Virus record (IMG/VR): IMGVR_UViG_3300025115_000016 | Span: 1-52,615 of that record | Reading direction: 5' to 3' (one strand) | DNA length: 52,615 bases | From: a virus | Lineage: Duplodnaviria > Caudoviricetes | Shown here: positions 8,376-38,800 of the stretch, piece after piece | How the letters are laid out: each line of letters begins with the position of its first letter | Numbering within the stretch: the stretch's first letter is position 1 | Position numbers and translations under genes: made by a program | The notes under the pieces: model-generated | What the model was told of the DNA's origin: nothing | Seen by the model: only the letters and a program-made list of their open reading frames with translations | Databases searched by the model: none

Positions 8376-8417
8376 ATTGCCTCCTTGTTATTTTTTATAT
8401 AGGGTAACTCGTATTTA

Positions 8418-9400: not shown

Positions 9401-10213
9401 ATGGCTTCTTTCAAGACCAAGATGGGTTTGGAGATTGAATACTATGAGAGGGGGGAGTTCAAGGGGGTATATAAGTATTGGAAGCAGGCAAGGCCCGGGG
9501 ATCTGTGGCTGCTCTCGGACGACGGATATGTAGTGAAGGCAAGGCAGGTCAAGGAGCTCGTGGAGGTCAGAGGGAAGTCTTCAAGGACGAGGTACAGAGT
9601 CTGGTTCCAGATGGGAAAGAGATACACGCACGGCAGGAGCGTGTACAACTTCATGGAGCACGTTGCCAAGAAGGATACCATCGGATACTCTCCGAGGACA
9701 TGGTGGGAGGCTCTTGCAAGCGCAAACCCGCATCTGGTAAAGATGCTCGCAAGACTGGTTATCTCCAAGAGACTCAACATGAACAAGACCAGGAAGTACA
9801 GCCGGATGGAATACGGATACTTCGACAAAGTTGCTCTTGCGTTCTACGGGGAAGTGTCCGATCAGAAGAATTGGTACAAGATCAGGACGTTCTACAATCA
9901 CGAAGGAGTGCGTATGCTCATACAGGACGAGATCGACAAGATGCTCAAGGAGTTCGACATCACCGCTCAGAAGACTATGGAGCTGTATCAGAAGGCGGAG
10001 AGAGCGGCTGTCGCAAGCGGGAACGGAAAACTCATGCTCGCCGTCGCCCAGGAGTACAGAGACCTGCTCGGAATAAACTTGAGAAGGGCCGGAGCGCAGT
10101 CCAAGTCTCTGCCGCCCGGAACTTCGGACGCTCCGGATGAGAGACTGCTGGAAGCAATCAACAACGCTCCCGAAAGAAAGGAAATACAGGATGCCACCAT
10201 CGTCGAGTCTTAA
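9401..10213 (+). CDS. Putative terminase small subunit
   Basis: Directly upstream of and overlapping TerL; helical C-terminal half. Assignment by position. Confidence 0.5.
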   Translation: MASFKTKMGLEIEYYERGEFKGVYKYWKQARPGDLWLLSDDGYVVKARQVKELVEVRGKSSRTRYRVWFQMGKRYTHGRSVYNFMEHVAKKDTIGYSPRTWWEALASANPHLVKMLARLVISKRLNMNKTRKYSRMEYGYFDKVALAFYGEVSDQKNWYKIRTFYNHEGVRMLIQDEIDKMLKEFDITAQKTMELYQKAERAAVASGNGKLMLAVAQEYRDLLGINLRRAGAQSKSLPPGTSDAPDERLLEAINNAPERKEIQDATIVES

Positions 10214-19833: not shown

Positions 19834-21011
19834 CGAGACTCGGAAGAACAATCGATGAACTCGACGAACTTTCTCTCGGAAGCATCTCCGATGCGTCGCT
19901 GCTTGCCATGCGCGACATGTCCTTGCCGAAGACTCACCCAAACGCCACAAAGTACTTCTCTGTCGCCGCACTCAAGTCCCTGATCGCTGCTATCGGGGAC
20001 TCCGCACTCCGCAAGGGGACGGTCTCGCTGACAGCGAACACTCCGACGTCGGTAGTCTTCTCTCAGCCGTTTACGAATCCATACTTCCTTGCCGTCAAAC
20101 GAGGTGAAGACTCCGCCGGCAGTCAGATAGGATGCGTTGTCAGCGAAGAAGGACAGGGCGGCTTCACGGTCACAGCAATGGAAGACTGCACGTTCTACTA
20201 CCTTGCCGTACAGAACATCGTGGGGATCGATCTTGAAGACATCATCTCTCCGGTTGACATTACCGACGTTCAGGACGACGACATACTTCGATATGATGCA
20301 TCGGAGGGAGTATGGAAGAATGTTCAACTTGAATCCGGCGACGCCAATGATCCTGGCGATATTTTTTTTATCAGAGATGACTTTGCTATTGGCAACGCAA
20401 CTTCCGGCAACGTCGGAGAACTCAGGTGGAGCTGGGCTACATCCATTGGCGGCAATGCGGTGCGACTCATTGATGAGATTGGTGCGATCGGACTATTTCA
20501 ACTGCAAACAGGGGCACAGCTCGCAAGCAATATAAGACTGTACTCTTTAGGCACAGGGCTTACGTTGAAATTTATACCTACTCAGCCGAATCAAACGCTG
20601 AAATGGAGAATTAAACTTGGACAGGCATCGGGAGCTCTGTTCAATGCGTACATCGGACTCGCTCAGGATTACGATACTCCCACGGGTGGAGGCAAAGACT
20701 TTGTTGGATTTCAATACTCTGCAAACAATGCAAATTGGCTATGTGTTTGTACGACGAGTTTCAGCGGTACAGAGCATACCAACAGCGGTGTTCCCGTTTC
20801 TACCGATTGGGTCACACTTGAGATCAGAACGAATTCGGATGCAACAGCGTACCAATTTTATATCAATGGCAATCTCGTTGTTACCCGCACAACCGATCTT
20901 CCATCTGCGACGTCCTGTTCTCCGCTTGTATGGCTTGGGAATACAGAGACAGCCGGAAAGACGCTCACGGTAGATTATTTCTACTATAAAATTACAGGGC
21001 TAACAAGATGA
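19830..21011 (+). CDS. Tail fibre with a C-terminal lectin-like beta-sandwich
   Basis: Fibre motif DITDVQDDDILRYDASEGVWKN; WVTLEI...FYING...LTVDYF. No signal peptide. Confidence 0.7.
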   Translation: MTRLGRTIDELDELSLGSISDASLLAMRDMSLPKTHPNATKYFSVAALKSLIAAIGDSALRKGTVSLTANTPTSVVFSQPFTNPYFLAVKRGEDSAGSQIGCVVSEEGQGGFTVTAMEDCTFYYLAVQNIVGIDLEDIISPVDITDVQDDDILRYDASEGVWKNVQLESGDANDPGDIFFIRDDFAIGNATSGNVGELRWSWATSIGGNAVRLIDEIGAIGLFQLQTGAQLASNIRLYSLGTGLTLKFIPTQPNQTLKWRIKLGQASGALFNAYIGLAQDYDTPTGGGKDFVGFQYSANNANWLCVCTTSFSGTEHTNSGVPVSTDWVTLEIRTNSDATAYQFYINGNLVVTRTTDLPSATSCSPLVWLGNTETAGKTLTVDYFYYKITGLTR

Positions 21012-24000
21012 AAAATAAATTAGCATTGATATTTATACTGCTTTGTTCGATTTCCTATTCGCAGACGACGATCAAGATCAAAGCTCTGTACACCGACACT
21101 CTTCGCTCGAATATGGATACGGTACGCGTACAGTCGTATACGAGGTTCTATCGTCCTGCGTTCTTCGACTCGACGGTCAGGTTTCTTCCTTCGGCTTTAT
21201 TCAGATCTTCTTCCGACACCCTGGCAACGAGAGCATACGCGCGTTCTATTTCCGGTTCCGGCAGTGGGAGCGACGCACTTTTAGACTCGCTCCAAAGGCA
21301 CACAGACACACTGCTTGCTCACAACATCAGGATCAACGCAAAGCAAGATGCAAGCCAGAACCTAACGGACATCTCTTCCGCATCTACCGGGGATGACTTT
21401 CTACTTCAGTATGTTTCCGGAGCGGGAGCATGGGTCGGAAGAACTCCCGCGCAAGTAGCGTCTACAATGGGATTGAACTCTGCTTCGTACGTTGACTCTC
21501 TTCGTCTGATGACGCTCGATAAGACAGAGACCGCAACCGGACTAAAGACATTCGTCGAAGGAATTCTTGTCGGGGTGGCTGCTAACGATCAGGGCTATGT
21601 ATCGTTCTCAAATCCTACGACGACGAACCGTGTGGTACTTCAGTCTGCCACTGCAACAGCAACGAGGACGCAGACTCTTCAGAACAAATCCGGGACAGTG
21701 ATGCTCACCTCAGACACAACGTCTCTTTCCAACAGGATCAACGCTGTTCCCGATTCTTCTTACTACGTCACCAAGGGCACAACACAGGTTCTTACCGCTA
21801 CGAAGTATTTTACAAGGGGCATAAATACTGATACAATACGTTCTACCAACCCATCAGTAGGAATAAAAATGGATGGTTACTTTGATACACAAGATGCACC
21901 TGTAAAATTTGGAAGAACGAGCGTATATGGTGGAAGTATTGAATTGATAAGTGGTAGTCTCACATCCAAATCTTCGGTGATTGATTTTCAGGGCGTTGGA
22001 AATCAAGCACATACATTTCCAGACGCAAGCGGAACGCTGGCGCTTGTTGCCGATTCTGCCATAGTAGCCGCAGGTTACGGTCTTGACCTATCTCAATCGT
22101 TGCACACGTTCACGTTGACCGTTGACACTACGAATGAGATAGCGACGCTGTATGATGTATCGCAGAAACTCAACTCTGCCGACACCACATCATTGTCTAA
22201 TCGCATAAACCTAAAACTCACAGCATCCGATACAGCGTATTTCGTTTCGGTGGCAAAGCAAAATGCAACAACGCGGTTTGACTCTGTTCAGATCGGATTG
22301 GCTACCGCATACGGTGGGGTTATCAGAATGACGGACGGTGCAAGCGGGGTGCTTCGGATTGTTTCACCGCTAATATATTCTGGCGATTACATTGATACCC
22401 TTCCCAATGCAAGCGGAACATTTATGCTTCGGGGTGATACTTTGTCCTTGTCAAACAGGATCAACACGAAACTTAATGCATCCGATACAGCGTATTTCGT
22501 ATCAGTGGCAAAACAAAACGCCTCGACACGGTTTGACTCTGTTAGAGTCGGTAAAGAGCAAGAGGTTGAGGGTTCTATTCTTTTTAGCGACGGCGGTAAC
22601 GATTGGGGTAAATTGTATATTGGGAATTTATCTTCAGATAAAACATGGAGATTGCCCGATTCAACGGGAACGGTTGCGTTACTATCAAATCTACAACCGA
22701 TACCAAATCCCCTGTATCTTGGAAACGGCTCAGAGGCAGGTGAAATTATATTAAATTCTGGAACTGGTGAAGCACCGCAATCTTATACTCGCATAAGTTC
22801 TACACATAATACGGGCGATACAATCTTTATATCGTTCCCAATAGAATCAGGCGATCTGATGTTGCGGAGCGATACAACTTCATTAAATGACAGGATAAAC
22901 TTAAAACTTAACTCTTCTGACACAACTTATTTTGTCTCAAGAGGAAAGCAGAACAACAATACTTCCTTTGACACTGTTCTTGTTGGTATTTCATCTGCAC
23001 AAACAGGCGGTGTGAAATTCTCCGACGGTGCATCTGGCTATGGTATTTTAACAAACAAGAACGGTGCTAACGGGAAGGTGTGGACGTTACCCGACAGCAG
23101 CGGAACTCTTGCACTCAAAGAATATACGCTTAATCCGACACAGGTCGGAACTGCCTCTTACATGGATTCCAACCGTGTAGTAACAAACGATGAACAGAAC
23201 ACAAGAACACGCTTCGACTCGATACAGGTCGGACTTGCAACGGCACATCGTGGCTCTGTTGTGTTTACCGATGGTGCAAGTGGTAGTGGAAGGGTTGTTG
23301 CGCCGCTTATTTGGACTGCCTATCACACACAGACACTTCAAGATAAGTCTGGAAATATAATGCTGACTTCCGATACCGTATCTTTATCAAATCGCATTGA
23401 TACAAAATTTGCGAAATCAGATACGACATATCTTCACGCCTTAAAATTTGCAAACATTACTGATTCATTGTTGGCACATAGAAATTATATGGGGGCAAAC
23501 AGAGACTCGATTAAAAGGCACACGGATAGTTTGCTGTCTCACAACACAAGAATTAACGCAAAACAAAATACGATCCCGAACCTTGCGGATACGTCAAAAT
23601 ATATCGAATATGCCGACACAACGCTGTCGATCGCTATGCAATGGGAACTCAATAGAAAGTTGTGGATTACTGATACAACAGGTAAGTGGGCACCGAAAGG
23701 GATTTATATATTTCCTTCCGATACCGTATCTTTGTCTAATCGCATAAACCTGAAACTTAACGCAAGCGATACAGCGTCTCTTTCCAATAGAATAAATCTG
23801 AAACTTAACGCAAGCGATACAGCGTCTCTTTCCAATAGAATAAATCTGAAACTCAACGCATCTGACACAACTTATTTTGTCTCAAGAGGAAAGCAGAACA
23901 ACAGAACACGCTTCGACTCGATACAGGTCGGACTTGAAACGGCACATCGTGGCTCTGTTGTGTTTACCGACGGTGCAAGTGGTAGTGGAAGAGTTGTTGC

Positions 24001-27000
24001 ACCGATTACTTGGAGTGCCTATCACACACAGACGCTTCAAGATAAGTCTGGAAATATAATGCTGACTTCCGATACCGTATCTTTGTCTAATCGCATAAAT
24101 CTGAAACTCAACGCAAGCGATACAGCGTCTCTTTCCAATAGAATAAATCTGAAACTTAACGCAAGCGATACCAACAGAATTGTAACCATTGACAAAGACC
24201 AATTAAGCATATCTGGCAAAAAGGGATTCTCCGACTCAATTTATGTCGGAACAGAACAGATTAGTGCTGGTGTGGTATATTTCTCTGATGGCGGGCAAAA
24301 TTGGGGTAGGCTGACACCTGGAAATCTAACCGCAGACAGAACGTGGAAACTTCCCAATGGCGATGGAACTCTTGCATTTACCGCCGATACTTCTTTGATG
24401 CTTCAAAACCCGTTGTATCTTGGTAATGGCGGTGAAGCAGGTGAAATTATTTTGAACAGTGGAACAGGAGAACCGCAACAGTCGTGGACAAGAATAACAC
24501 CGACCAATGGTGGTGCAAACGATACCGCATATATTCTTTTGCCGTCAAGCGATGGAACTCTTGCGCTTGTCGCCGACTCTGCCGAAGTAGCGGCAGGTTA
24601 CGGTATCTCTGTAAGCCAATCCAATCATACGGCTACGGTGTCGGCGGATTCATCTGTTCTCGTCACCAAAGGCACGACACAGGTTATTACCGCTCCGAAG
24701 CACTATACTCAACCGCAGTTTATCACAACATCATCAGACTCGGCTTTAATCTTATCGCACACAGGAACTACGTCGGCAGGACCGATAATCCCGCTGAGGA
24801 TTGCGATAGCAGGCTCACAGACGGCTTACCCTGAAATCAAGGCAATCAACTACACGCCTACGGGGAATTGGGGGAATATTGGTAATCACTACGGCATCTA
24901 CTCTGACTTGTCTGGTGTTAGTTACGATGATTTATTGGGTGATGAAGGCGCAATTTACGGTAACTCACCGAGTGGTATCGGTGTTCAAGGCGTTTCAACA
25001 AACAATTACGGTGTTTACGGTTCTTCGGTAGGCAGTATCGGTGTTGCTGGTCTTTCAACAAACAGTTATGGTGTTGTTGGTAACTCAGGAAATAACTACG
25101 ACGGCTACTTTATAGATTCAGTCTACGTCGGAAAGAGAATAACCGTTCCAACTGGTTTTGTGGAAGCGGACTCGTTCAGAAGCAATTATGTAACTCGTCT
25201 GACCTCCGGCTCTTGGCACGCTGGACTCGGTGCATCGTCTTTAGGAAACATATCTACTGGTTCAATTACCGGAACGGGTGCAACGGCTGGCGAAGTATTG
25301 TATGAATTTAATAACTCACAGGCAAGGGCGGCAAACAATCGCTCGGCTATTGCATTAAGGTTATCGAACAATTCAAATTCTCGTTTTAGGATTCGGCACG
25401 TTCAGGCATCTGCGACAGACGACGATTCTTACCTTGATTTTCAACAGCCGAACGGTTCAACGATTGCCGTTTTGACAAGGGCGGGGGTATTTACACTCGG
25501 CTCTGTTTCGGGGACTGGCTCAACGGCGTTCAATGCAGGTGCTATCTCTGGCACTACGGGGACGTTTAGTCAGACAAGCGATGGTTTAGAAATAACCCCA
25601 CTAACATTACAAAATAATGCTAATTCCTATGCAACGGCAAGCAGGATAATCATAGCATCTACGAATAACATTGGTGCAAATCAAAATGGGCGGATTGACC
25701 TATTATCGTTTCGCCATACTTCGGGTGCGATGAGTCTTAACTTTTTGTTATCGCCAGGTTCTTCTGTTGCCCCAACATCAAGACTATACATTGACAGTCT
25801 TGGAAATGTGGGAATTGGAACGACAACGCCAAATTCAAAATTACAGGTCAACGGCACACTCTCCGCCACTACGGGGACGTTTACAGGAAATATGCTGTTT
25901 AACAAATCGTCTGGCGATTTAACAACAACGCTTCGAGTGCCAAACCTAACAGATGATAATTACATTGTATTTCAAAAGGCGGGATTATCAAAGTGGGCAT
26001 TGTGGCATCGTGCAAATCAGTTTAGAATTTGGAACTACTCAACAGGAACTACGGCATTAGCAATAGATTCAACTGATAACAGTGTAACGCTGACAGGCGG
26101 ACTCTCCGCCACTACGGGGACGTTCAGCGGTGCTGTATCTATTACTCCATCACCAACAACAAATCCGCACCTAATTGTTCGCTCAAATGTAACTGGTTCG
26201 GGGGCAAACATACAATTAAACAACGCCGAAAACGGGAAATACTATGAGTTTCGTGTTGGCGGTTCATTATCTTCTCTGGGTAATGGGATCTTGGGCGTCA
26301 CAACGCTTGGTGCTGCTGCAACCGTTGTAAAGTGGGACACGTTGGGCAATCAAACTTTAACAGGCGGACTCTCTGGCACTACGGGGACGTTTAGTTCTAC
26401 TGTCCGTGTATCAACCGATGGACAGGGATTTTTGGCATCCGCGTCGTTGACCTCTATGCCCTCTGGAATCAGCAACATTTTCAACAACTTTAACAATAAT
26501 AAGGGGCTGGTGTTACGCAGAACTGGTGCTGGAACGGGTGACTTTATTGATATGCAGAATAGTTCGTCTCTTACCGTTGCTTCTATAAATTCAAGTGGTG
26601 ATTATACGGGCGGTTCTGGTTCGTTCACTACGGGGACGTTCAGCGGTAAAACTCAATCTGGCGGTCTTACTTCCGTCGGTGCTTTCGGTATGGCGAACAT
26701 CGTTGACACAGTTACCTACGCAGGCGTTAACAGCAGTATAGCCGCTAAAAATCTCACATCAACCGCTGGTATGTATCGGCTGACCTACACAATGGCGACA
26801 ACTACGGCGGGGACGGGTGGGACGGTTACGGTTACTCTATCGCACAACAACGGAGCGGCGCAAACATTAACATCGGTTATACAACTTAATTCAACGTCGG
26901 CTGCGTCTGGCGGCGTATCATCGGGACAGTTTGTTTATTACGTCGCAAGCGGGACTCCGACAATATCTACAACTGTCGCGGGTGCATCCGGTTCACCCGT

Positions 27001-27037
27001 TTATCGTCTGGACGCAATATCGGAGAGAATAAAATGA
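21008..27037 (+). CDS. Giant modular fibre/adhesin-like protein with a signal peptide (2009 aa)
   Basis: MKNKLALIFILLCSISYS|Q; DTxSLSNRINLKLNAS repeats; GVxGxS repeats; GNVGIGTTTPNSKLQVNG; TTGTF-delimited modules. Confidence 0.85.
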   Translation: MKNKLALIFILLCSISYSQTTIKIKALYTDTLRSNMDTVRVQSYTRFYRPAFFDSTVRFLPSALFRSSSDTLATRAYARSISGSGSGSDALLDSLQRHTDTLLAHNIRINAKQDASQNLTDISSASTGDDFLLQYVSGAGAWVGRTPAQVASTMGLNSASYVDSLRLMTLDKTETATGLKTFVEGILVGVAANDQGYVSFSNPTTTNRVVLQSATATATRTQTLQNKSGTVMLTSDTTSLSNRINAVPDSSYYVTKGTTQVLTATKYFTRGINTDTIRSTNPSVGIKMDGYFDTQDAPVKFGRTSVYGGSIELISGSLTSKSSVIDFQGVGNQAHTFPDASGTLALVADSAIVAAGYGLDLSQSLHTFTLTVDTTNEIATLYDVSQKLNSADTTSLSNRINLKLTASDTAYFVSVAKQNATTRFDSVQIGLATAYGGVIRMTDGASGVLRIVSPLIYSGDYIDTLPNASGTFMLRGDTLSLSNRINTKLNASDTAYFVSVAKQNASTRFDSVRVGKEQEVEGSILFSDGGNDWGKLYIGNLSSDKTWRLPDSTGTVALLSNLQPIPNPLYLGNGSEAGEIILNSGTGEAPQSYTRISSTHNTGDTIFISFPIESGDLMLRSDTTSLNDRINLKLNSSDTTYFVSRGKQNNNTSFDTVLVGISSAQTGGVKFSDGASGYGILTNKNGANGKVWTLPDSSGTLALKEYTLNPTQVGTASYMDSNRVVTNDEQNTRTRFDSIQVGLATAHRGSVVFTDGASGSGRVVAPLIWTAYHTQTLQDKSGNIMLTSDTVSLSNRIDTKFAKSDTTYLHALKFANITDSLLAHRNYMGANRDSIKRHTDSLLSHNTRINAKQNTIPNLADTSKYIEYADTTLSIAMQWELNRKLWITDTTGKWAPKGIYIFPSDTVSLSNRINLKLNASDTASLSNRINLKLNASDTASLSNRINLKLNASDTTYFVSRGKQNNRTRFDSIQVGLETAHRGSVVFTDGASGSGRVVAPITWSAYHTQTLQDKSGNIMLTSDTVSLSNRINLKLNASDTASLSNRINLKLNASDTNRIVTIDKDQLSISGKKGFSDSIYVGTEQISAGVVYFSDGGQNWGRLTPGNLTADRTWKLPNGDGTLAFTADTSLMLQNPLYLGNGGEAGEIILNSGTGEPQQSWTRITPTNGGANDTAYILLPSSDGTLALVADSAEVAAGYGISVSQSNHTATVSADSSVLVTKGTTQVITAPKHYTQPQFITTSSDSALILSHTGTTSAGPIIPLRIAIAGSQTAYPEIKAINYTPTGNWGNIGNHYGIYSDLSGVSYDDLLGDEGAIYGNSPSGIGVQGVSTNNYGVYGSSVGSIGVAGLSTNSYGVVGNSGNNYDGYFIDSVYVGKRITVPTGFVEADSFRSNYVTRLTSGSWHAGLGASSLGNISTGSITGTGATAGEVLYEFNNSQARAANNRSAIALRLSNNSNSRFRIRHVQASATDDDSYLDFQQPNGSTIAVLTRAGVFTLGSVSGTGSTAFNAGAISGTTGTFSQTSDGLEITPLTLQNNANSYATASRIIIASTNNIGANQNGRIDLLSFRHTSGAMSLNFLLSPGSSVAPTSRLYIDSLGNVGIGTTTPNSKLQVNGTLSATTGTFTGNMLFNKSSGDLTTTLRVPNLTDDNYIVFQKAGLSKWALWHRANQFRIWNYSTGTTALAIDSTDNSVTLTGGLSATTGTFSGAVSITPSPTTNPHLIVRSNVTGSGANIQLNNAENGKYYEFRVGGSLSSLGNGILGVTTLGAAATVVKWDTLGNQTLTGGLSGTTGTFSSTVRVSTDGQGFLASASLTSMPSGISNIFNNFNNNKGLVLRRTGAGTGDFIDMQNSSSLTVASINSSGDYTGGSGSFTTGTFSGKTQSGGLTSVGAFGMANIVDTVTYAGVNSSIAAKNLTSTAGMYRLTYTMATTTAGTGGTVTVTLSHNNGAAQTLTSVIQLNSTSAASGGVSSGQFVYYVASGTPTISTTVAGASGSPVYRLDAISERIK
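23204..24166 (+). repeat. Internal duplications in the fibre gene
   Basis: About 180 bp near-identical at 23204-23384 and 23903-24083; 48-bp tandem units at 23720-23863 (x3) and 24071-24166 (x2). Confidence 0.9.
25552..26640 (+). repeat. Five identical 15-bp repeats CACTACGGGGACGTT separating unique modules
   Basis: Copies at 25552, 25867, 26110, 26377 and 26626. Confidence 0.9.
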
Positions 27038-28056
27038 AAAACATAATTTTACTTTTACTATTTGTTACTGTCGCATATTCTCAGCCATTCTCCCCACGTT
27101 TGAAAGGTTCAAACGGCATTGACTATAAACTCGTCAATCAGACAGCCGTAGGCGACAGTATCATGATAACAGCCGCAGATACCAACAGAATTGTAATGGT
27201 TGATAAAGATCAATACATCGGGGGATTCAAGACATTCTACGATTCCATTGAAGTGGGTGAGCCGCTTAATGTTGTTGGTGTTGTCCGTTTTTCTGACGGT
27301 GATCAGGGAACGGGAAGACTTCTTGGTGCATTGGGTGGAAGCTATAATTGGCGACTTCCCGTCGGTGATGGCACGCTTGCGAGAACATCTGATATTCCAG
27401 TGGTTATTACAGACACCAATCGAATTGTTGATACAGATCAAGCACAGACTATAACTGGTGCAAAGACGTTTAACGCTCGTCCATATCTTTTTGACGGCCT
27501 GAAATTCTACGGCGACTTGAATGACGGTTCATTGGTTTCTCCATCGCTAACCGATATTAGAACTTGGACGCTTCCCAACACAACGGGAACTATTGCTTTG
27601 ACGGACGGAAATCAGAACTTCAACGATGTTGCAAATATCACGGCAGACTCAATAAAAGTATCTGGCGGTATAAACGCAGATAAAATGTCCGACTTTGACT
27701 CCATTCAGGTTGGAATAGCGACGGCGGAGGTTGGTGTTATTCGTCTGTCTGACGGTGCGAGTGGTTATGCAAGAATTTACAATAGTGCAAACTCGGCACA
27801 TATATCCCTTCCATCCGAGAGCGGTGAAATGCTTGTTTCTTCAAGGTCTGGCATAGCAACCGTTGGTGGTGGTGATAGTGTTCAGGTTTCATACACGGGG
27901 TTCACCACTGATGGTATAGTTATGTTGACATACGAGGGTGGTAATATTGCATATACAAAGATTCCCGTCGTTGGATATAAAAGGACTGATGGATTCACAA
28001 TTTACGCAGACGCTTCTTTCAATGTTGCTTGGTTCGTGGTAAAAAAGGGGGATTAA
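27034..28056 (+). CDS. Second signal-peptide-bearing fibre-like protein
   Basis: MKNIILLLLFVTVAYS|Q; shares DTNRIV, FDSIQVG and SDGASG modules with the 2009-aa protein. Confidence 0.8.
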   Translation: MKNIILLLLFVTVAYSQPFSPRLKGSNGIDYKLVNQTAVGDSIMITAADTNRIVMVDKDQYIGGFKTFYDSIEVGEPLNVVGVVRFSDGDQGTGRLLGALGGSYNWRLPVGDGTLARTSDIPVVITDTNRIVDTDQAQTITGAKTFNARPYLFDGLKFYGDLNDGSLVSPSLTDIRTWTLPNTTGTIALTDGNQNFNDVANITADSIKVSGGINADKMSDFDSIQVGIATAEVGVIRLSDGASGYARIYNSANSAHISLPSESGEMLVSSRSGIATVGGGDSVQVSYTGFTTDGIVMLTYEGGNIAYTKIPVVGYKRTDGFTIYADASFNVAWFVVKKGD

Positions 28057-28297
28057 GTGAGTGAGAAGGAGAATTGATTGATATATGGTTTGAGATTGAA
28101 ATATATGTTTGGGATAGTGGATAAAATAATTGGTATTGAGAAAGATATGATGTATTGGAAATGATTTATGTATGGAAAATATTTTGAGTAGATAATGAGT
28201 TGATTTGAGTATATTTGTGGGAGTATTTATATGTGATTGTTCGTTGGAAAATATGTGTGGAAATATGTGAGGATAGAATGAATTGAAAAGAAATATA
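28036..28297 (+). other. C-depleted non-coding tract
   Basis: No C in 28036-28241 and one C (28242) in 262 nt. Confidence 0.9.
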
Positions 28298-28359
28298 CTG
28301 ATGATATACCTATTCTGGCTAATGTGAGGGAGCAAATAAGGGAGTAAATGAGGGAGTAA

Positions 28360-28782
28360 ATGATTTACCTATTTTGGTTCATACATCTTGTCTGCGGTGC
28401 GTTGACTGACGCTCGTATGTGGGGCAAGAAAGAGGACGATCCTGAATGGGTTGCGGAATACACGGATGCCTTTTGGCTTGGATATTTCACATTAAGCCCG
28501 TTCTTGATTGCGTGGCTTGTGTCAATGGGTGTTCCGATACTCTCGTGGGAATCGCTGGCAATCGGTTTCGGTATGTCGGTGTTTTGGGACTTGACGTTCA
28601 CGAAGATTGAACAGGGCAAATGGGTTGCACCGATACCGTTGTGGCTCATCATACCCAATCCCTTCTCAAAAGCGGACACTTGGTATGGACGCAGGATTGT
28701 AATAGGTTTCAACACGGTCAACGGTATGATTGACTTCAACTTGTTCAGGATATTGATTTTATTACTAACACTTATCTTTTAA
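28360..28782 (+). CDS. Multi-pass membrane protein
   Basis: Three to four hydrophobic segments; GGGAG RBS. Confidence 0.7.
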   Translation: MIYLFWFIHLVCGALTDARMWGKKEDDPEWVAEYTDAFWLGYFTLSPFLIAWLVSMGVPILSWESLAIGFGMSVFWDLTFTKIEQGKWVAPIPLWLIIPNPFSKADTWYGRRIVIGFNTVNGMIDFNLFRILILLLTLIF

Positions 28783-28804
28783 CGCAATGCAACAGGGGAA
28801 GAAA

Positions 28805-28945
28805 ATGCCACGCCAAAGTTCACAACAGATGATCGTCGAAGAACTGCGAATAATCCAGAATGACGTGAAGGGTTTATCAGGTTTCAGGGGCGACAATGAA
28901 TTGGAGAGAAATATACTGAGCGCGGTTACTAATATAATCTATTGA
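28805..28945 (+). CDS. Small hypothetical protein (46 aa)
   Basis: Translated by hand: MPRQSSQQMIVEELRIIQNDVKG...TNIIY; GGGGA RBS. Confidence 0.45.
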   Translation: MPRQSSQQMIVEELRIIQNDVKGLSGFRGDNELERNILSAVTNIIY

Positions 28946-28972
28946 CTGTACGGATGCTTTTGTCTAACTTTG
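28942..28972 (+). promoter_or_regulatory. Host sigma-A type promoter for the lysis/tail/ejection genes
   Basis: TTGACT-N17-TAACTTTG. Confidence 0.75.
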
Positions 28973-28989
28973 CATAACGAAACGAAAGG

Positions 28990-29304
28990 ATGATCGAAAT
29001 GTCTTCTTCTAACGGTACTCAGAACTTGCCAACGTGGGCGAAGGTAGCACTCGCTCTCCTGGGAGTAGCCATGACAGCAGGGGGGACATTGGCGACATTC
29101 GCAACGAAAACAGAAGTCTCGGAAGCAAAGATCGAGATGGAACGAAAGATCCTCATTGAAAAGTCGGACCGGCTGGATTGGCAGAAAGACTTCAAGAAGG
29201 ACTATCGTGAGGACATGGATAAAGTACAGAAGAAACTCGACGACATTATTCACGCTCTTGCAGACAAGCAAGATCGGAAAGAAACTCAACGTAACACAAA
29301 ATAA
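28990..29304 (+). CDS. Membrane-anchored coiled-coil protein (holin/antiholin-like)
   Basis: One TM segment plus coiled coil, upstream of the endolysin. Confidence 0.55.
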   Translation: MIEMSSSNGTQNLPTWAKVALALLGVAMTAGGTLATFATKTEVSEAKIEMERKILIEKSDRLDWQKDFKKDYREDMDKVQKKLDDIIHALADKQDRKETQRNTK

Positions 29305-29316
29305 AAGGAGCAATAC

Positions 29317-29712
29317 ATGGATTACCAACAGATGTTCATCTCTCTTGCCAAACTCGGCATCTTCGCGGCGTTCATCGCCGCCACAATCGAAGTAATAAAG
29401 GTAGTCGCTGCGAAAGGACTACTCCTTCTGGTCAAAGAGGTCGTTGTCTCTCTCTGGAGGAATACGGAACTGTCCGCTGAGAGCGTGAAGGTTCTGAACT
29501 TCGTCATCGCCCTGATATACTGCAAGGTCTTCCACTACGGAGTCATGCAGGACATTCTCGGACTCACCTTCAACATGGACAACGGTGGAAGCATGCAGTA
29601 CTTCCTTGACTATGTAGGAACTTCATCCGTCGTCTTCATGGGGGCCGGCTGGTTCTACGACAAGATCATGGAGATCAAAAAGAAAATTGAAACCCCCGTG
29701 GTGAAGAAATGA
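29317..29712 (+). CDS. Putative holin
   Basis: Three hydrophobic segments, charged C-terminus, adjacent to the endolysin. Confidence 0.6.
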   Translation: MDYQQMFISLAKLGIFAAFIAATIEVIKVVAAKGLLLLVKEVVVSLWRNTELSAESVKVLNFVIALIYCKVFHYGVMQDILGLTFNMDNGGSMQYFLDYVGTSSVVFMGAGWFYDKIMEIKKKIETPVVKK

Positions 29713-30032
29713 TATATCTTAAAGACACGGTACGGTTCAAGATCCTTCTGCCGGAGATATGGATTCTCTTTCCGATCATCGACGAGGTGTGGAGAGTGCT
29801 GGCCGGAAAGAATCCTACGATCACCTCTGCGAACGACAGCAGACACGGCACAAAGAGTCTTCATTTCAAAGATCAGGCAATCGACATTCGGTCAAAAGAC
29901 CTGAACGAAGACCAGAAAGACCTCATATTTTCAGAACTCAAGAAGCGTCTCAATCCGATCGGATACGACGTTCTGCTTGAGTATCGAGGACAAGACAATG
30001 AGCATTTTCACGTTGAGTACGATCCCAAATGA
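29709..30032 (+). CDS. Endolysin, peptidase M15-type (Zn)
   Basis: ITSANDSRH...SLHFKDQAIDIR...HFHVEYDP (H-x6-D...HxH). Confidence 0.85.
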   Translation: MIYLKDTVRFKILLPEIWILFPIIDEVWRVLAGKNPTITSANDSRHGTKSLHFKDQAIDIRSKDLNEDQKDLIFSELKKRLNPIGYDVLLEYRGQDNEHFHVEYDPK

Positions 30033-30140
30033 TTACCACACGGAGGACCATGTGGACAGCGGTACCTCCCCCCTTCCACCTTCGTTGAATGAGGGGCCGG
30101 AAGTATTCCGGAACGTAATGGTCCAATACGGAGAACAGCC

Positions 30141-30632
30141 ATGCAGCGTACAACCATAGTCCTCATAATCCTGTGCATAGTATTGGCGCTGTGCACGGGA
30201 TACCTATATCGCAACCAGGGACGCCAAAGTACATCTGTCGTAGGACATGTCATCGAGATACCGGTCGATCTTCCTCCGGTGTACATACAGGGCCCTGCTG
30301 TCCCTTATCCGGTCAAAGACACAACTGATTTTCAAAAGTACTTGGATAGCCTGCTTCGTCAGACTGAGGATCAGAAGGACTCTGCGATCACGAGTTTGTC
30401 TCAGCCATTCAACATCAACGGCGAACAGGGAATCATCAAATACGACATCACTGCGTTTCCTCAACTCAACATGAGAACGATCGAAGCAATCTTCGACGTC
30501 AATCCGTTTAAGGTCGATACGACGTTAATGGACACAACGCTGATCGTAAAGAACAACAGCGATTGGTACGTCTTCACCCTGATCGGTTCGGTAGTGACAT
30601 TCATACTATTGGCAATTACCGGAGGCCTCTAA
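30141..30632 (+). CDS. Spanin-like membrane protein
   Basis: N- and C-terminal TM segments; follows the endolysin. Confidence 0.5.
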   Translation: MQRTTIVLIILCIVLALCTGYLYRNQGRQSTSVVGHVIEIPVDLPPVYIQGPAVPYPVKDTTDFQKYLDSLLRQTEDQKDSAITSLSQPFNINGEQGIIKYDITAFPQLNMRTIEAIFDVNPFKVDTTLMDTTLIVKNNSDWYVFTLIGSVVTFILLAITGGL

Positions 30633-33600
30633 TGCCGAGAGAAGCATATACCATAGGTAGATTTGACAGAGGCATCATCTCTGCGGTCGAAGGAGCAGAC
30701 CTTCCGAAGGAGTCTTCTCCGTGGAGCATCGATCAGGACTGCGAAGGCCCGCTTGGAGTCCTTCGCGGAAGGAACAACGACGAAGCGTTCGTCTCCCATG
30801 CCTCAAGGGGAAACAACGCTCAGGCATACGGATGGATCGTAAGGGAAGACGGAAAGCGCGACCTGATATACTACGACGCTGCAAACGGAGACGTAAAGTA
30901 CATCACCGACTTCCACGGCACAAAAGGATATGGCACCTCATTCAGTCCGGGAACAGGCAAGACAGTCTCGATTGAATCTGTCAACAGAGGCGTGCGCGTG
31001 GCCGTAGGAGACGCAGACGTAAAGTTTATCGGCTACATCGACCACGAGCAGTTCGGCGGGAGCGTTCCGAGCGGACTTCAATGCGTCGATGCAAAACTGT
31101 CCAACCAAACCTCTTTTCCCTACGTTCACAAGATGGTCGGACAAGACAGTCTATATGGATATGCGATTGAATGGCAGGGAAAGAAAGTCTTCAAAGTTAC
31201 TCTCTCAAGCGGAGCGTTCGTTCTCTCTGAACGATCCTTTGGCTCTCTCCAGGGGATTTGCGAAGACGGCACGTATATCTACGTCTACGATGCATCGATA
31301 GGAACATATGGCACTCTCTACAAACTGAATCAGTCTCTTGAGGTGGAAACAAGCTATCCTCTTTCCGGCTTTGGAAGCGTAGGAAATGAATTCGGCGGCA
31401 CTCAGGCTGGAATTGTCACCGACATCGAACTAAGCGCCGACAACTCCACTGTATGGTTTACGGGAGTGCCGAGCATCCCTATCACCGCGGCATCTTCGTG
31501 GAACGAGGCTGGTTCAAAATTCATCTTCTCTCAAGACATATCGTCTCTCAACGACGGTCAGTCAATAGTTCCCGTCGATAGAACGCCGTCGATGGCGCTG
31601 GATGTTTCAGAGGGAAGATTCAAGTCAACCGGAATAGTTCGTCCCGCAATGCGCGGCTTTGTCAAACTTACCACCGGAACCGAGATCGGAATATTCTGCT
31701 CCATCGAACAGAACGTGTACTACGACGGAACGGCTTCGGATGGAAAGCCGTATCTTGGCATATTGATTCTCAACACATCGTTTGTGGTTTCTTCCGGTTT
31801 CAACTCTGCGAATTCAAGGTTCATTGCCGTCGATGCTACAAACATGGTTCCGTCTCCCAGCGCTCCCGACAGTTGGTCTCCGATCAACGCCATCTACTGT
31901 CCGAATGGATCGGGGGAAGACGTTCTTGTCATCGCGGACAACGCAAACCTCTTGACTGAAGAGTGCGCTCTTGCAGACAATAAAAATCTTACGATTGGCG
32001 CAGCCGGCTCGGCGTTCGCCTGGGATGCGTCGGGATGGAAAACAATCTCGGTTGATGACGACAGCGAGGCTATTGACGACGAGCTCACAAATGCATCGAT
32101 CATGTTCAACAAGTACGACGGAGTCTCGGAGCTGAACGAATGCTACGTCTTTCCAGCCTATCAGTACCATGATGATCCCCTTACTGTCAACGTCGATCAG
32201 TCTCCGAGAATGTACAAACTATTCATCGGCGACGACGCATCTTTCTCGGCGGAACCTCATGTATATGTCAAGAGAAGCGATGCATGGATAACAGCGGAGA
32301 TCAACAACAATGAACCGGGAAGTCTTGGCGGGAAAGTTTACTTCTACAAATATGCGTTCATCTACGATGGATACCAATATTCTCCGCTTGAGAATTTCAA
32401 CGAACCGTTTAGGATCATCATTGGCAGCGGAAGTTACTCAACAAGGGTAACGGTTACGCTTAGAGACAATGTATTGAATGCGAGAATTACCGATGTTGCA
32501 ATATTCAGGGCCGAGGCGGCATCAAGCACATCTCTTCGTCCGACGACATCCTATCGTCTCATCAACACGATCAGTCTCAGGCAGAAGTGGGCGTTGAACA
32601 GCAGCGGCAAGTTCTCCGACTTCTATCAGGAGAGCGTCTACGATACGGGAAACTTCGGCGGTGCGTATGAAACAGAGTCCGGCATCGATGCGTCCAATCC
32701 GAACAACTTCATGCGCTATTCAATATCCGCTCAGGGGAACGGATACTTTTTTGTCGGTCAGTGTTTCAACGAAGAGTTCGACGACAACTCTCTTGCAAAC
32801 TTCCTGTTCCGTTCAAAGCAGAACGCTCCCGATACGTACGACTGGTCAACAGACTTCCTCGTGCTTCCGACCAAGCCCGTCGCACTTCACTTCTTCAGAG
32901 GGCTTCTGTACGCCTTTGACGTAGCCAGAATGTACGTGATCGATCCGAACAACTTCCAGATCATCCAGGTAGTCGAAGGGATGGGCGTTGAGGACCAGCG
33001 ATGCGTCGTGTCAAATGAAACGGCGATGTTCTTCGGAAACAGGAACAATGCGTACATGCACGACGGAAAGACTCCGACGATCATCTCCACGCCGGTGAAT
33101 GTCTCTTCCGATTCGACCATAGGTGGAACGGCAATCATTTCGTATAGGGCTACATTTGTAAATTCATACGAAATGTCCATTGCTATTCACTCAAAGAGAA
33201 ACCTTGTCTTGTTCTGTTTTTCGAAGACGGGAGCATCAACGTATATCCTTGGATTTCACTATCCGACCGGCTCATGGTACTTCTGGCAATTTGCCTCAAG
33301 TATCGATGGAACGATCCTGCCAAACGGTACCGGTAAAAAGATGGTTCTTGTCGATGGATATGGACAGGCATATCTTTCGACCGCCGGTGGCCTTCTCAGC
33401 ATCAACTCTGCTGCTACCTATAAAGCATGTACATGGTACAGCCACATCATCGACGGCGGGACTGTCAACGCCATCAAGAAGTTCTACATGATCATCCTGG
33501 ACGGTACGGCAGGAACGACCAAGCAGGTGGCATACAACGGAAGCACGACGTTCTCCACAGACTTCACTTCCGGAACATATCTTGATACGACGACCAAGAG

Positions 33601-33948: not shown

Positions 33949-34782
33949 ATGGATCCACTTACTATCGGACTGATCATGGGCGGGGGAAGCATCCTTGGCA
34001 AGATGTTCAGCAAGACCCCCGACTTCCAGCGTCTGGACAGAGCAAACTACATGCTCGGTTCAGACTACGAATACGATCCCGAAACCGACTTCGGACAATC
34101 TACTGCTGCCGACAACATGTCCAGATACGGCATGGGCGGCGCGTACAACTCCTACATCAAGGGAGAAACAGAAGCCCTTCGCAAGTCTGAGATGAACCGC
34201 ATACTCAAGATGGCTACCAGCATGGTCCCGGGAATGGCTTCCTTGAGGGGCGGAGTGTCTGCCCAGGGAGCAGGGGGAAGCGTCTCGAACGTCATTGCAA
34301 GACAGCAAAGAGAGCAGATGCAGGGACGCGCCCTTGACGCGGCAGACTCGATGTACGAGAAGTCTGTCGGAGGCATCAACATGGCTGAACTGAACATGCT
34401 CTCGGACAGCGAGAAGATGCGATATAGCTCTTCGCAAGACTACATGAAGGCGGTAGGAATGGGAACAGAGGCGAAGAACCAAGCCCTCAGATTCAACGTC
34501 GGCAACCGCTTTGAACGAGACCGGCTCAACATGTCGAATGCCCTTAGCATTGAACAGTTCAACCGCACCGGACAAATGAAGGCAGATGAAATGCGCTTCG
34601 GCAAATGGAACAGCATCTTCGACGACCTTGGAGGCATGGGAGGCACGATGCTCGGACATTGGGCGGGAAGCTATGATTTTAATGGAGAAAGCGACCTGGA
34701 CTATTTTAAGAAACCAATAACTATTGACCAAAGGAAAGAAGTTGATTGGAATAAATTTGGATTTGGTGGAAGGAAAAGGTGA
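33949..34782 (+). CDS. Ejection / pilot protein 1
   Basis: MDPLTIGLIMGGGSILGKMF N-terminus; Gly/Met/Gln-rich. Confidence 0.75.
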   Translation: MDPLTIGLIMGGGSILGKMFSKTPDFQRLDRANYMLGSDYEYDPETDFGQSTAADNMSRYGMGGAYNSYIKGETEALRKSEMNRILKMATSMVPGMASLRGGVSAQGAGGSVSNVIARQQREQMQGRALDAADSMYEKSVGGINMAELNMLSDSEKMRYSSSQDYMKAVGMGTEAKNQALRFNVGNRFERDRLNMSNALSIEQFNRTGQMKADEMRFGKWNSIFDDLGGMGGTMLGHWAGSYDFNGESDLDYFKKPITIDQRKEVDWNKFGFGGRKR

Positions 34783-35810
34783 CTAATATGGGAGCACTTT
34801 CAGAGAACTTCGCACGAGCATTCTCTCAGTCCTTTGCACAACGTAAGGAAGACGAGAAGCTCGAAGAGTCTGTTCGTATGCAGGAGATCAGAGAGAAGAA
34901 CGAACAGGACTATCGCAACGAGCAGATCAATCTATCCCTGCAACAGCTTCGAATGACCGAACAGAACAACATCCAGAACAACAACCGGATGATGCTCTCT
35001 GAGGCCAATCGTCAGTTTGTTACAACCGGGGAGAATGATCCCATTCTAAGATTTGGAGGACTCAAACCTCAAAACTCCGAGTATCTAAATGCTGCCGGAC
35101 CGCTGGCAAAACTGGATACAGGAAATGTCGCTGTCGATAGATCGGTATATGAGAAAATGGCTTTTGCGTATATCGAACAAATGAGGCAGGATTCCCGTGG
35201 AAGCGAAGTCTCAAAGATGCAGGAAAATCTCATGTCTCTTGAGAATGCGGCCAACAGCATGTCTCCGACATTCACATCGAAGGGTTCTCTTCCGACAATA
35301 GCGCTTCGCAAGTCGGTTACGAATCAGCAAAGACTTGTTATGGGCGATGCCGGCAGATGGGCTGCCAACTACGGCATTGCTGTCTATGACGATCCGAACC
35401 GTCCTATGACAATCGAGGGTACGAAGCAGGTGTCTCAAGAGGTTCTCGATCCTAACTATCTTGAGAATGTTGCAAAAATAATCGAGCGTATGCGTGGAGA
35501 GGGACTTCGCGCCAACAACCGTCAGCTTGGAATAAATGTGGACGAATACATCAGACCTGTCGAACGCTCATGGTTTGACAACGTGATGAAACACTACAAC
35601 ACGATCGATGCGGAAAAAGTCAGCCCTGCCGTTCGCGCGTTATTCAATCGTCTCCAAAGAACAAACATGATGGAGGCAAACGCACAGCAGATGCAGAGGA
35701 TGAAAGAAGTCTCGAGTATCCTATCAATGATGAAGGCTGCCGGAGATGTATCCAGCGAGTACAAAGAACCGGCTAAATCAATGGTCTCACCATATATCGG
35801 CGGACAATAA
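34779..35810 (+). CDS. Ejection protein 2
   Basis: Helical and Gln/Asn/Met-rich; lies between the pilot and the giant protein. Confidence 0.65.
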   Translation: MTNMGALSENFARAFSQSFAQRKEDEKLEESVRMQEIREKNEQDYRNEQINLSLQQLRMTEQNNIQNNNRMMLSEANRQFVTTGENDPILRFGGLKPQNSEYLNAAGPLAKLDTGNVAVDRSVYEKMAFAYIEQMRQDSRGSEVSKMQENLMSLENAANSMSPTFTSKGSLPTIALRKSVTNQQRLVMGDAGRWAANYGIAVYDDPNRPMTIEGTKQVSQEVLDPNYLENVAKIIERMRGEGLRANNRQLGINVDEYIRPVERSWFDNVMKHYNTIDAEKVSPAVRALFNRLQRTNMMEANAQQMQRMKEVSSILSMMKAAGDVSSEYKEPAKSMVSPYIGGQ

Positions 35811-35814
35811 TCTT

Positions 35815-38800
35815 ATGGCAAAACTTCAACTGCTATACGGGACGCAGGCCCCGCAAGAAACCTCAACGGAGCGTCCTTCATGGGACGCTTCGTCGTTTAT
35901 CGGACAGTTCATGGCCGGATACGTGGAAGGACTCACGACATTCGACGTATTGGACAACTACGACATCGTAAAGAACAACGCCGACACCGAGGCAGAATAC
36001 ATCGCCAGAAGTCTCGGAAGCGTTCTTGGGTTCATCGGATTCCTGCCGTTTCCCGGAACAGGCACGTTCACACGACTCGGCTTTTCCACTGCCGCCAAGG
36101 CAATGAAGCTCGTCGGACAGGCAGACAAAGCAAAGAGCCTTGCCGCAGAAGCCAGGGCTGTCAAGATGACCATGACCTCTATCCCGATGATTACCGGAAG
36201 AGTGATGAGCGGAGGAGTAATGAGGATGCTTGAGTCCGGAGCCGCCAAGTCTGCGCTTCAGTTCGGAGAGCAGGCGATAGGAAGAAGTCTTTCTGCCGGA
36301 GCGAAAGCAAGAATATCCTCTTATACCGAAACGGGTTTGTTTATGGGTTTTGCCTCAGCCGCAGCTGCTCGCCCAATGAATCCTATGGACATCTTCAGCG
36401 AAGGATGGGACGAGCGATGGGAAGCAGCGAAGTACGGCATGGCATACGGCGTAGGACAGCAGGCGATCGCATCGTTCTTCTCTCCGAAACTCATGGAGAA
36501 ACTTGGAGCGAAGAACTTCAAGGAGCTCATGCAGAAGGAGCCGGACAAAGCCGAATTCATGCTCAAGTCTCTTCGCGGAGTTTCTACCGGCCTTGTGATG
36601 GGCGGATATGCGGCAGCCGAAGGGTTCCCAAACGAACTTGTGCTGTACGAAACTCTTGTCAACGGTGTCTTCGGATACAGAGAGCTTCCCTGGTACAACA
36701 AGCAGGCGATGAAACTGATGAACAAGCACCTTCGTGAAGAGAAGGTTGCGGACTATCTGCTCATGCAGAAGACTCCCGAGAAGTACCTTGAGTCTGTCGG
36801 AGAGACCGATCTTCCGCCCGAGGTCATCAACTCGTTCTCAATAGCCGCCACCGCTCACTTTGGGAACACCGTCAAAACCGCATCTGCCTACATCGAAGCG
36901 ATGAAAAAGACCGAAGCCGCACGCAGAGGCGTGGACGTGGAATCTCTCGGAGACGAATTCATATCTGAAATGATACAGTCCGGAGACATCACCAAGGCGA
37001 AGGCATGGCAATCCCTTCTTGAGTACGATCAGATCATGAAGATGGAGACCGACAAGGCGGTCAACACATTCGAAGAGGTTCACAAGAGAAAGCCCAGCGA
37101 AGAGGAGATGCACGACATCTCGGATGCTGCCAAAGACAATGCGGACGCCATCAGCGTCGATCTCTGGTACAACAACGACGACGCGATCAGGATCATCAAG
37201 GACGTCGCCAAGAGGGTGCACTACGAACAGGAGATGACTCAGCAGACTCCCGATCAGCTTCTCAAGGTGGCTTCCTCGATGAGAGAGGCGGGCATCTCGA
37301 TGCAGGCGGCCGAATTCGTCACGACGCTCAGCGACGTCCTCGGCAAGGAACATCGCGGCTTTGAGACCTTGCGCACGATCAACGAGATCATTCGTACCAA
37401 CAAGCGCGACGGACAAAAGAACTACATTCCCGTCAGGGATCAACTTACCGGAAAGTTCGGCATCACGTTGACCAAAGAGCAGGACAATGCGTTCAGGCAT
37501 CTGTGGGCCATGTACTCCAACAGCAAGACCAGAAAGATGCTCAAGGTCAACCTGTCCGACTACGACGTCTTCAGGCCGACAGAGCACCTTGCAGACGGCA
37601 CGTTCAAGGCGGAGATCGACAACGTGACTCCGATCGAAAAGATGACCGGTCTCGAAGCAATGTATCTGAAGACAGCGGTGGATAAAAAGACGGACGTTCC
37701 GATCCACTCTTCGAAGGTCAACGCTTCCCGGCTGATGGTGGAGTCCTTCAAGAAGAACTGGTGGTATTTCTCCGGCAAGAAGGACAATCACCACATGGTC
37801 TTCTTCGACATGACAGAGGCCAAATTTGAGCCAGGAGACTTCAATTTAGCCAAGGAGGCCTTAGCCATAGATGCGGTCTTAAAACCGCTCCAAGACCCCT
37901 CTAAAGGCGATTATGTGCCATTTTTAGAGCAGTATGCGAAGGACAAAGCCCTTTTTGTGGCTGAAGCCCTGAGAGACGTCCCTGAAGGCAAGGCAATAGG
38001 CGAAAAGATAGCCGCAGAGAAGGCATACGACGCCCTGTACAGCTTCAACGCTGTCCAGTGGAAGAAGTTCAACCATGCGGAGACCCTTGCTGAACTGTTT
38101 GCAGACAGGGATGCGTTCTCGATTACCGATGTGACGAAGTTCAACAAGCGTACTCAGTTGATGTTCGACGTCGGCATTCCGATGGATCCGAGCGTCGTCG
38201 GAAGGGAGAAGCTCAGCGCCAGGGTGGCAGAGTGGACCCCGGAGTCTCTCGGTCTGTTCAAGACTGAGTTCGGTCGAATGTTCGGAGGAAAGAACCCCTT
38301 GCAGTACGACGGCGTTGCGTGGGTGCGAAGAGAGGCCGCCAAGGCATTCGGCTCGTACTCCGGAAACGAAGAGGGGGGATTTCACAAGATCGCTGCCGTT
38401 CACTCCGACGACCTTGGAGGACTCTTAGGCAAGCAAGGCTTCCACGTAATGACTGCGAAGGAAGAGTCGATGCTCGATAAGTCCGGCATCAGCGACGACA
38501 TCGTGTTCTTTGAGAGCGCCACAAAACTCAAAGGGAAGCGTCCTGTAACCAAACTGACCTTATCCAAAGAAGGCATCACTCACGACGCTACTGAAGTGAT
38601 CAACCCGGAAGACCCGCTCGGCAAGAGGACAGGCGGCTCGTTCGAGATTCCCGTAGAGTCGATACGTCTGAACCTGTCGGCAGCGGAAGATCCGACGATC
38701 AAGCCTGCTCACATCGCCAAACCGCTCTTGAACCACTTTGAAGAGTCTCCCGAACTCTCAAGGCTCATCATGGAGAAGTACGTGCTTCCGGGATTTGAAG

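Follow-up and report, generated by a model that had tools for sequence, protein, structure and literature searches.

The window analysed here, IMG/VR virus record IMGVR_UViG_3300025115_000016 at its full length of 52,615 bp, is the genome of an uncultured freshwater phage, a podovirus-like orphan of 52.6 kb, and it contains a 262-nt tract (28036-28297) with a single cytosine on the + strand. The tract is real, statistically extreme and far above what chance would produce. Its composition is the only property of it that we could detect, and the data point to a constraint, or an origin, in composition alone. A natural three-letter run of about 260 bases without repeat, motif or coding signal is not predicted by standard annotation or mutation models. 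Our tentative reading is that the tract is a spacer constrained in composition only, which may act mainly on RNA and, in one direction, through Rho.

Composition and physical properties of the tract

A sequence-only reading of this DNA had drawn attention to a C-free run of 206 nt within 262 nt holding one C, and direct counting confirmed both figures. The run from 28036 to 28241 is the longest C-free run in the window. It ends at the lone C (28242), after which a further 55 nt (28243-28297) are again free of C, and the tract as a whole is made up of 96 A, 91 T, 74 G and 1 C. The second-longest C-free run in the window measures 53 nt (34730-34782), and the longest runs devoid of A, G or T measure 44, 44 and 35 nt, respectively. 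Over 300 shuffles, the longest C-free runs were 35 nt on average and 53 nt at most. At the genomic C frequency of 0.243, the number of runs of at least 206 nt expected by chance is 1.6e-21; with C set to 0.16, the frequency at fourfold sites of the neighbouring genes, it is 2e-12.

One correction concerns the extent of the anomaly. The upstream gene, coding for a tail-fibre-like protein, stops with TAA at 28054-28056, and its last 7 codons lie within the C-free run. The C-terminal domain of this protein is 66-70% identical to those of P0008 and P0009 (which, like P0002-P0006, come from short contigs and were compared as proteins only). These homologues end in ...FVVRK and the window protein in ...FVVKKGD, which indicates that the end of the fibre-like gene is native and that the run opens with 15-21 nt of ordinary coding sequence. 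At the other end, the final 18 nt of the C-free run fall within a recurring 22-nt motif, GAATTGRARAGAAATATACTGA. Because the first 21 nt are fibre codons and the last 18 nt are motif, the anomalous core is narrower than 28036-28297, at about 28051-28279.

Read support, which the sequence-only reading had wanted confirmed before anything else, came from a public run, X1, that had been assembled separately. One of its Logan contigs, 17,342 nt long at depth 35, matches the window letter for letter across 27300-29100, with neither gap nor joint. Run X1 is probably the window's own source sample, and the contig counts as a second assembly, with no independent biological replication. The identical contig thus excludes an assembler artefact, and nothing beyond that.

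In agreement with the earlier remark that the tract is not a simple repeat, repeated 5- to 10-mers were no more frequent than in dinucleotide shuffles, 0.06-0.35 of which reached the observed count. No periodicity of AA, TT, G or A/T triplets reached the 95% null. The entropy of the tract is close to the three-letter maximum, and it is without a motif of its own. Stops, noticed previously in the + frame that follows the fibre stop, turned out to be present in all three + frames. Covariance models of Rfam 15 gave no match to 27000-29500 at E up to 1, and the fold of the sense strand was no better than the folds of its own shuffles (z = -0.25). An iteron-type replication origin was considered and rejected: there is no direct-repeat array, k-mers are not above shuffles and periodicity is lacking. 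The template repeat of a diversity-generating retroelement was rejected as well, since aligning the tract locally with the remainder of the window gave a best score of 32 against a shuffle mean of 32.2; scans with Pfam and PHROG, which did not cover every small open reading frame (ORF), revealed no reverse transcriptase.

Physically, no stretch of the genome forms a weaker duplex than the tract, whether windows of 100, 200 or 260 nt are used. The tract's stability of -1.10 to -1.14 kcal/mol per step lies about four standard deviations (sd) from the mean of -1.40 (sd 0.06-0.07). The GC content of 27.7% is the genome minimum, and the GC skew is 0.97, the next highest being 0.43. When RNA folds were computed over 400 windows of 262 nt, the tract was the weakest on each strand, with -26.3 kcal/mol for the sense RNA (mean of the windows -69.4, sd 11.5) and 0.0 kcal/mol for the antisense RNA (mean -69.9, sd 13.7). 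Neither strand is able to form G-C hairpins. The energy of the RNA:DNA hybrid minus that of the duplex, which speaks to energetics only, is average for the sense RNA (-0.002; mean -0.020, sd 0.057) and unfavourable for the antisense RNA (+0.10). The antisense strand contains no ATG, GTG or TTG, 53 YC dinucleotides, 28% C and 1 G in 262 nt. On the sense strand G accounts for 28%, compared with 13-23% at the fourfold sites of the two neighbouring fibre genes.

Possible roles and origins of the tract

The tract occupies the only long gap of its operon in which RNA polymerase would run without ribosomes. Two other gaps of more than 200 nt in the + operon are each filled by an ORF (79 and 109 aa), which leaves the 303-nt spacer downstream of the fibre-like gene as the sole long untranslated stretch. 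Rho utilization (rut) sites are described as lying in little-structured regions with a bias of C>G, for which 60-90 nt is the best length, and ribosomes engaged in translation as shielding RNA from Rho, which bears on polarity (PMC12360218). We hypothesize that ribosomes would leave the message at the fibre stop and that RNA polymerase would then cross 303 untranslated bases. Since a C-free transcript would offer no C>G region for Rho loading, the downstream cassette of small genes would escape polarity, and the sense transcript would stay open ahead of tandem ribosome-binding sites. An antisense transcript, being G-free, devoid of start codons and of predicted structure and containing 28% C, would be an ideal loading site for Rho.

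Three features described for rut sites are found on the antisense strand. The C>G bias is pronounced (28% C, 1 G in 262 nt), the low structure (0.0 kcal/mol) extends over 262 nt where at least 60-90 nt are called for, and ribosome shielding is lacking, there being no start codon and no homologue of the antisense ORF. The G content, which exceeds that of fourfold sites, fits a bias against rut sites and does not fit selection for easy melting. In addition, near-maximal entropy without repeats or periodicity is the expectation if only composition is constrained. An unstructured spacer, resistant to Rho on the + strand and rut-like on the other, had already been put forward from the letters alone, and it remains the best fit to the measured properties; we regard it as the leading, still tentative reading. 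Sense transcription through the gap, a Rho in the host, and selection, not a single event, as the cause of the exclusion of C are inferred. If selection does exclude C, the phage would hide an untranslated operon segment from Rho one way and trap Rho the other way. If true, such hiding and trapping by composition alone would be a simple, testable and reusable design rule.

Several observations weigh against a Rho-related spacer. Selection driven by Rho should deplete C, not leave 1 in 262 nt, and so near-total an exclusion better fits a process that never used C. The hypothesis also leaves the existence of the gap unexplained. Shine-Dalgarno-like tetramers (GGAG, GAGG and AGGA) occur in the tract no more often than its composition predicts, and no RNA runs are listed among those holding the stretch. 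We know of no case in which C is kept out of 260 nt to avoid Rho.

The relatives that we reached offer no evidence that the spacer is conserved, which likewise speaks against the hypothesis. The spacer is absent from three distant relatives (G001, L009 and L010) and from a fourth locus, L007; the comparison of the same locus, which had been expected to separate decay from function, thus revealed no conserved tract among the three. In G001, whose capsid protein is 64% identical, the fibre gene stands directly next to a homologue of the gene for a 1043-aa protein, 28057-30562 has no counterpart, and shorter fibre-type genes stand at the position of 21008-29304. L009 and L010 have no spacer at the junction, and their longest C-free runs are those that their composition predicts. 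L007, the one distant locus returned by a scan of metagenome_contigs with an alignment of the downstream 140-aa protein family (A1), carries a 46% homologue of the 140-aa gene directly after another gene, again with no spacer. Against GenBank phages, neither blastn of 27000-29400 nor tblastn of both flanking proteins gave a match. Scans of viral_contigs with both flanking proteins and the 1043-aa protein identified no relative; alignment scans of viral_contigs and of genome_contigs with A1 and with the fibre domain (A4) were equally negative. The significance of the tract hinges on its retention in closer relatives.

Sense-strand C-free runs of 79 and 84 nt in G001 were rejected as counterparts of the tract, being coding, rich in Gly, Asn, Asp and Met codons and a different thing. 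The 84-nt run (48393-48476) occupies the place homologous to the window's own 53-nt run at 34730-34782, which encodes the C-terminus of a 277-aa protein. These two runs stem from Gly-, Asn-, Asp- and Met-rich sequence and are coding, unlike the tract.

Second in our ranking, and likewise no more than tentative, is a one-off product without function. Under this explanation, about 230-260 nt of three-letter DNA was either synthesised without C (or without G, on the other strand) or left when a single base was erased from one strand of an older non-coding stretch. Its lack of a terminator, hairpin or Rho site would have let it be tolerated at the module junction where it landed. One C in 262 nt would be natural for synthesis from three nucleotides, as would entropy near the three-letter maximum and the lack of a motif. 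The tract is also unique within the genome and missing from the three distant relatives. It lies, moreover, inside a block of deviant composition: in 21008-29304, which comprises the two fibre-like genes and the first cassette genes, C at fourfold sites is 0.13-0.19 compared with 0.25-0.37 in most other genes, and part of this block belongs to the region without counterpart in G001. Given this distinct composition, 21008-29304 is probably a module exchanged with a phage of lower GC, and the tract lies inside it. Template-independent defence polymerases provide a source of random single-stranded DNA of tens to hundreds of nt. AbiK is reported to yield three-letter products when one deoxynucleoside triphosphate (dNTP) is left out (PMC3177184), DRT4 to favour dATP and dGTP (PMC12783706), and products of DRT1 to be at least 70% A.

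The same descriptions also argue against a one-off product. As far as these sources describe them, reported products contain all four bases when all dNTPs are supplied, and those of DRT1, with their 70% or more of A, are unlike the tract. The last 18 nt of the run are part of the recurring GAATTGRARAGAAATATACTGA and hence no filler. As to the version in which a base was erased, the searches for a remaining coding signal and for a C-degenerate source were both negative. To our knowledge, there is no pathway that would turn an untemplated product into duplex DNA inserted in a phage genome, and no route by which such a product would enter one. More narrowly, we consider it improbable that the tract is natural three-letter DNA made untemplated or under starvation for one nucleotide and later fixed in the phage genome; a captured product of the Abi/DRT type and repair synthesis with a dCTP or dGTP pool emptied by defence are possible sources. 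If this were true, the tract would be the physical trace of a phage-defence encounter in a genome. A single-event origin of the tract would point to a process that writes or erases one base on one strand.

It is unlikely, but less so than the untemplated or starvation synthesis just described, that the tract is an easily melted DNA-unwinding element whose separated strands form no hairpins. Such an element would serve an origin of the T4 oriF/oriG type, activated by a transcript, or absorb superhelical stress on the upstream side of GAATTGRARAGAAATATACTGA. An unwinding or replication element was among the earlier hypotheses, and the weakness of the duplex is compatible with it: the tract is the least stable duplex at 100, 200 and 260 nt, with the lowest GC content (27.7%), and both of its single strands are the least structured of the genome. 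The phage also encodes a primase, a helicase, a Sak4-like annealing protein and a resolvase. The T4 origins are reported to need just a promoter and an A+T-rich unwinding element, which can be exchanged for unrelated ones (PMC3016281). Only composition, and no specific sequence, is therefore required of such elements, and the tract is A+T-rich and easily unwound at all three window sizes. Other observations speak against it. The tract lies at the middle of the operon for late structural genes, with the replication genes over 17 kb away, and has neither iterons nor excess repeats. No promoter-like site occurs just upstream (27900-28060), and those inside the tract are at chance level; in a scan for the sigma-70-type consensus only, two 9-of-12 matches fell within the tract and the total was not above shuffles. 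Hybrid minus duplex energy is average for the sense RNA (-0.002) and unfavourable for the antisense RNA (+0.10). Selection for melting should remove G too, yet G stands at 28%. A change in GC skew near 24-28 kb was also considered as a replication signal and was rejected, as it is missing at fourfold sites.

The two remaining biological explanations are each very unlikely. One supposes that the tract descends from an array of a short C-free unit, made by tandem repetition or slippage, which has since decayed. Tandem Repeats Finder does report weak arrays (periods 18-19, 10 and 12; scores 40-54), and TGGAAA is present four times. Against this, repeated k-mers of 5-10 nt are at shuffle level and no periodicity exceeds the 95% null; decay that erased the repeats should also have restored many C's, unless C was selected against. 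Slippage synthesis, one half of an earlier suggestion, is accordingly unsupported, while the other half, non-templated synthesis, survives within the one-off product discussed above.

The other holds that a gene once stood here and was turned into the tract by processive, strand-specific C-to-T deamination, as the sequence-only reading had also proposed. Speaking for it, the frame from GTG 28057 has six stops in the tract, five TGA and one TAG, and no TAA, a pattern with a chance of about 0.05 given the tract composition and seen in one frame chosen after the fact. However, T makes up 34.7% of the tract and A 36.6%, and conversion of a typical phage gene would give near 50% T. The phase counts of G are 20/19/27 (chi-square 1.7, p 0.42), and 60% of 198 gene windows exceed 5.99. 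We also scored the tract with a three-periodic Markov model trained on this phage's genes with C erased. The tract scored -0.023, compared with a mean of -0.024 for its own shuffles, and fell below the 168 erased gene windows (median 0.047, 5th percentile 0.0035). C-to-A/T gave an equal outcome; ambiguity arose only where C was allowed to become any base and with some of the minus-strand models. Against the remainder of the genome, G001 and L007, C-degenerate Smith-Waterman searches gave no score exceeding the range of 8 shuffles. Altogether, with no excess of T, no codon phase of G and an erased-gene score at shuffle level, a former gene appears unlikely from these sequence statistics. An erased non-coding stretch is possible as an origin.

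Finally, an assembly or sequencing artefact is hardly credible: the record is a single metagenomic assembly and the only run listed with the stretch is probably its source sample, but the Logan contig covers 27300-29100 without difference, gap or joint and the flanking genes are intact, with homologues.

Genome and local elements

The features around the tract are collected in Table 1.

Table 1. Position of the tract and of neighbouring features in the window
Feature	Position	Strand	Remarks
Tract with a single C on +, a single G on -	28036..28297	.	Extreme composition, far above chance; weakest duplex; least structured
Untranslated spacer, 303 nt	28057..28359	+	Stops in all + frames; only long one in operon 9401-45087
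Tail-fibre-like gene, 340 aa, signal-peptide-like N-terminus	27034..28056	+	C-terminal domain homologous to P0008 and P0009
Gene for 140-aa hydrophobic protein	28360..28782	+	First gene 3' of the tract; conserved phage family with no assigned function
22-nt motif GAATTGRARAGAAATATACTGA, copy 1	28280..28301	+	3' end of the tract; 58 nt before ATG 28360
22-nt motif GAATTGRARAGAAATATACTGA, copy 2	28898..28919	+	70 nt before ATG 28990
3.2 tandem copies of TGAGGGAGTAAA (12-nt unit)	28325..28363	+	3' of GAATTGRARAGAAATATACTGA copy 1
Antisense ORF, 148 aa	27889..28335	-	Judged no gene
Late operon block	9401-45087	+	About 35 kb

The motif GAATTGRARAGAAATATACTGA occurs in exactly 2 copies in the window, both on the + strand and 618 nt apart, and was not found in any of 100 shuffles. 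Only about 25 nt are common to the two sites, and viral_contigs contained no match. The motif is a candidate regulatory site and may be a promoter or operator of the small-gene cassette. Each copy of TGAGGGAGTAAA carries a Shine-Dalgarno-like GGGAG and TAAATG, which gives stacked ribosome-binding sites. The array also forms a mini-ORF, ATG AGG GAG TAA, and the stop codon of this mini-ORF shares bases with the start of the 140-aa gene. The TGAGGGAGTAAA repeat is matched by short Logan contigs at other depths too.

The 140-aa protein has five relatives with 66-75% identity, and its sequence suggests a small membrane protein. It has no PHROG or Pfam match; its nearest cluster is unnamed and mostly viral (score 0.89) and serves as a lead only. 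The antisense ORF was rejected as a gene, having no homologue (E up to 0.01) and no Pfam family; it is open through the tract only because a G-free strand cannot contain TAG or TGA. No terminator-like site was found on the + strand of 27589-30700. Promoter-like sites were not above shuffles (7 found, 7.8 expected), and antisense ones behaved likewise. The 9-mers common to intergenic regions were Shine-Dalgarno-like words only, and the ribosome-binding sites of the genes are strong and of the GGAGG type.

The record is rated complete by its completeness estimate, and the metagenome label of the run holding the DNA is freshwater. The terminal 131 nt at both ends (1-131 and 52485-52615) are 99% identical, which is compatible with a terminal repeat or with a circular assembly. 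A primase-like reading frame (2-1177) and a helicase-like one (51748-52596) reach the record ends and may be one gene. The + block encodes the large terminase, the portal, an SU10-type major capsid protein and an adaptor, together with fibre-like proteins of 2009 and 340 aa, the 1043-aa protein and a 3113-aa protein. It is flanked by minus-strand genes for a primase, a helicase, a Sak4-like annealing protein, a ParB-like nuclease and a resolvase. No tRNA genes were found in the window, and the closest terminases of GenBank phages are all less than 27% identical to that of the window.

Several further observations concern other parts of the genome. The 3113-aa protein (35746-45087), whose gene closes the late operon, matches nothing in Pfam or PHROG and is conserved in G001 and L010 at 23-29% identity (in L010 as partial matches only); it may be an ejected giant protein like those of N4-like or crAss-like phages. 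The 2009-aa fibre-like gene contains several families of internal direct repeats in 21700-26650, with units of 29-203 nt in 2-5 copies each. A nucleoside 2-deoxyribosyltransferase-like protein is encoded at 51345-51683 (phrog_355, E 4e-25) and gives a hint of uncommon nucleotide metabolism. Were C or G modified by the phage, the modification would be missing from one strand of the tract. The first genes of both divergent operons are C-poor in sense (8176-8435 and 9389-9648; GC skew -0.49 and +0.43). The + side (9389-9648) is the genome's most favourable site for an RNA:DNA hybrid, and minus-side windows at 8522-8679 are in the top five. The divergent control region (8906-9400) contains a TTGACA -35-like hexamer.

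Comparison with known systems

One comparison is with rut regions, with which the antisense strand shares the C>G bias, little structure, a length above 60-90 nt and the inability to be translated (PMC12360218). The sense strand is their exact opposite and is located where polarity would be expected, in an untranslated gap. The rut regions known so far are rich in C and poor in G, whereas the antisense strand of the tract is G-free, and Rho dependence here is hypothetical.

The unwinding elements of T4 oriF(uvsY) and oriG(34) are likewise A+T-rich, easily unwound, independent of sequence and transcribed (PMC3016281). They differ in being about 100 bp long and directly 3' of a defined middle promoter, and the available description does not present them as free of one base. 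For the tract, no promoter was identified, its position is in a late operon and its hybrid energy is average.

Products of the defence polymerases AbiK, Abi-P2, AbiA, DRT1 and DRT4 resemble the tract in being random, tens to hundreds of nt long and three-letter if one dNTP is missing, and that of DRT4 is purine-biased. In contrast to the tract, they are protein-linked single strands, and entry into a genome is not among the features reported in the parts of these sources at hand.

In tobacco mosaic virus, the omega leader lacks one base, G, as the tract lacks C. It is likewise viral and untranslated, is described as having no stable stem-loops and precedes a well-translated gene (PMC3963034). 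It differs in being about 70 nt long and eukaryotic, and in heading an RNA genome at its 5' end. Synthetic transcription cassettes of the C-less and G-less kinds, as presented in the material available, illustrate that DNA can be transcribed without one nucleotide, and they are laboratory constructs. A limited literature search found no natural counterpart of these cassettes and no description of natural cytosine-free tracts in phages. At most, the tract is an extreme form of a loosely known kind, that of unstructured, Rho-blind or easily melted spacers.

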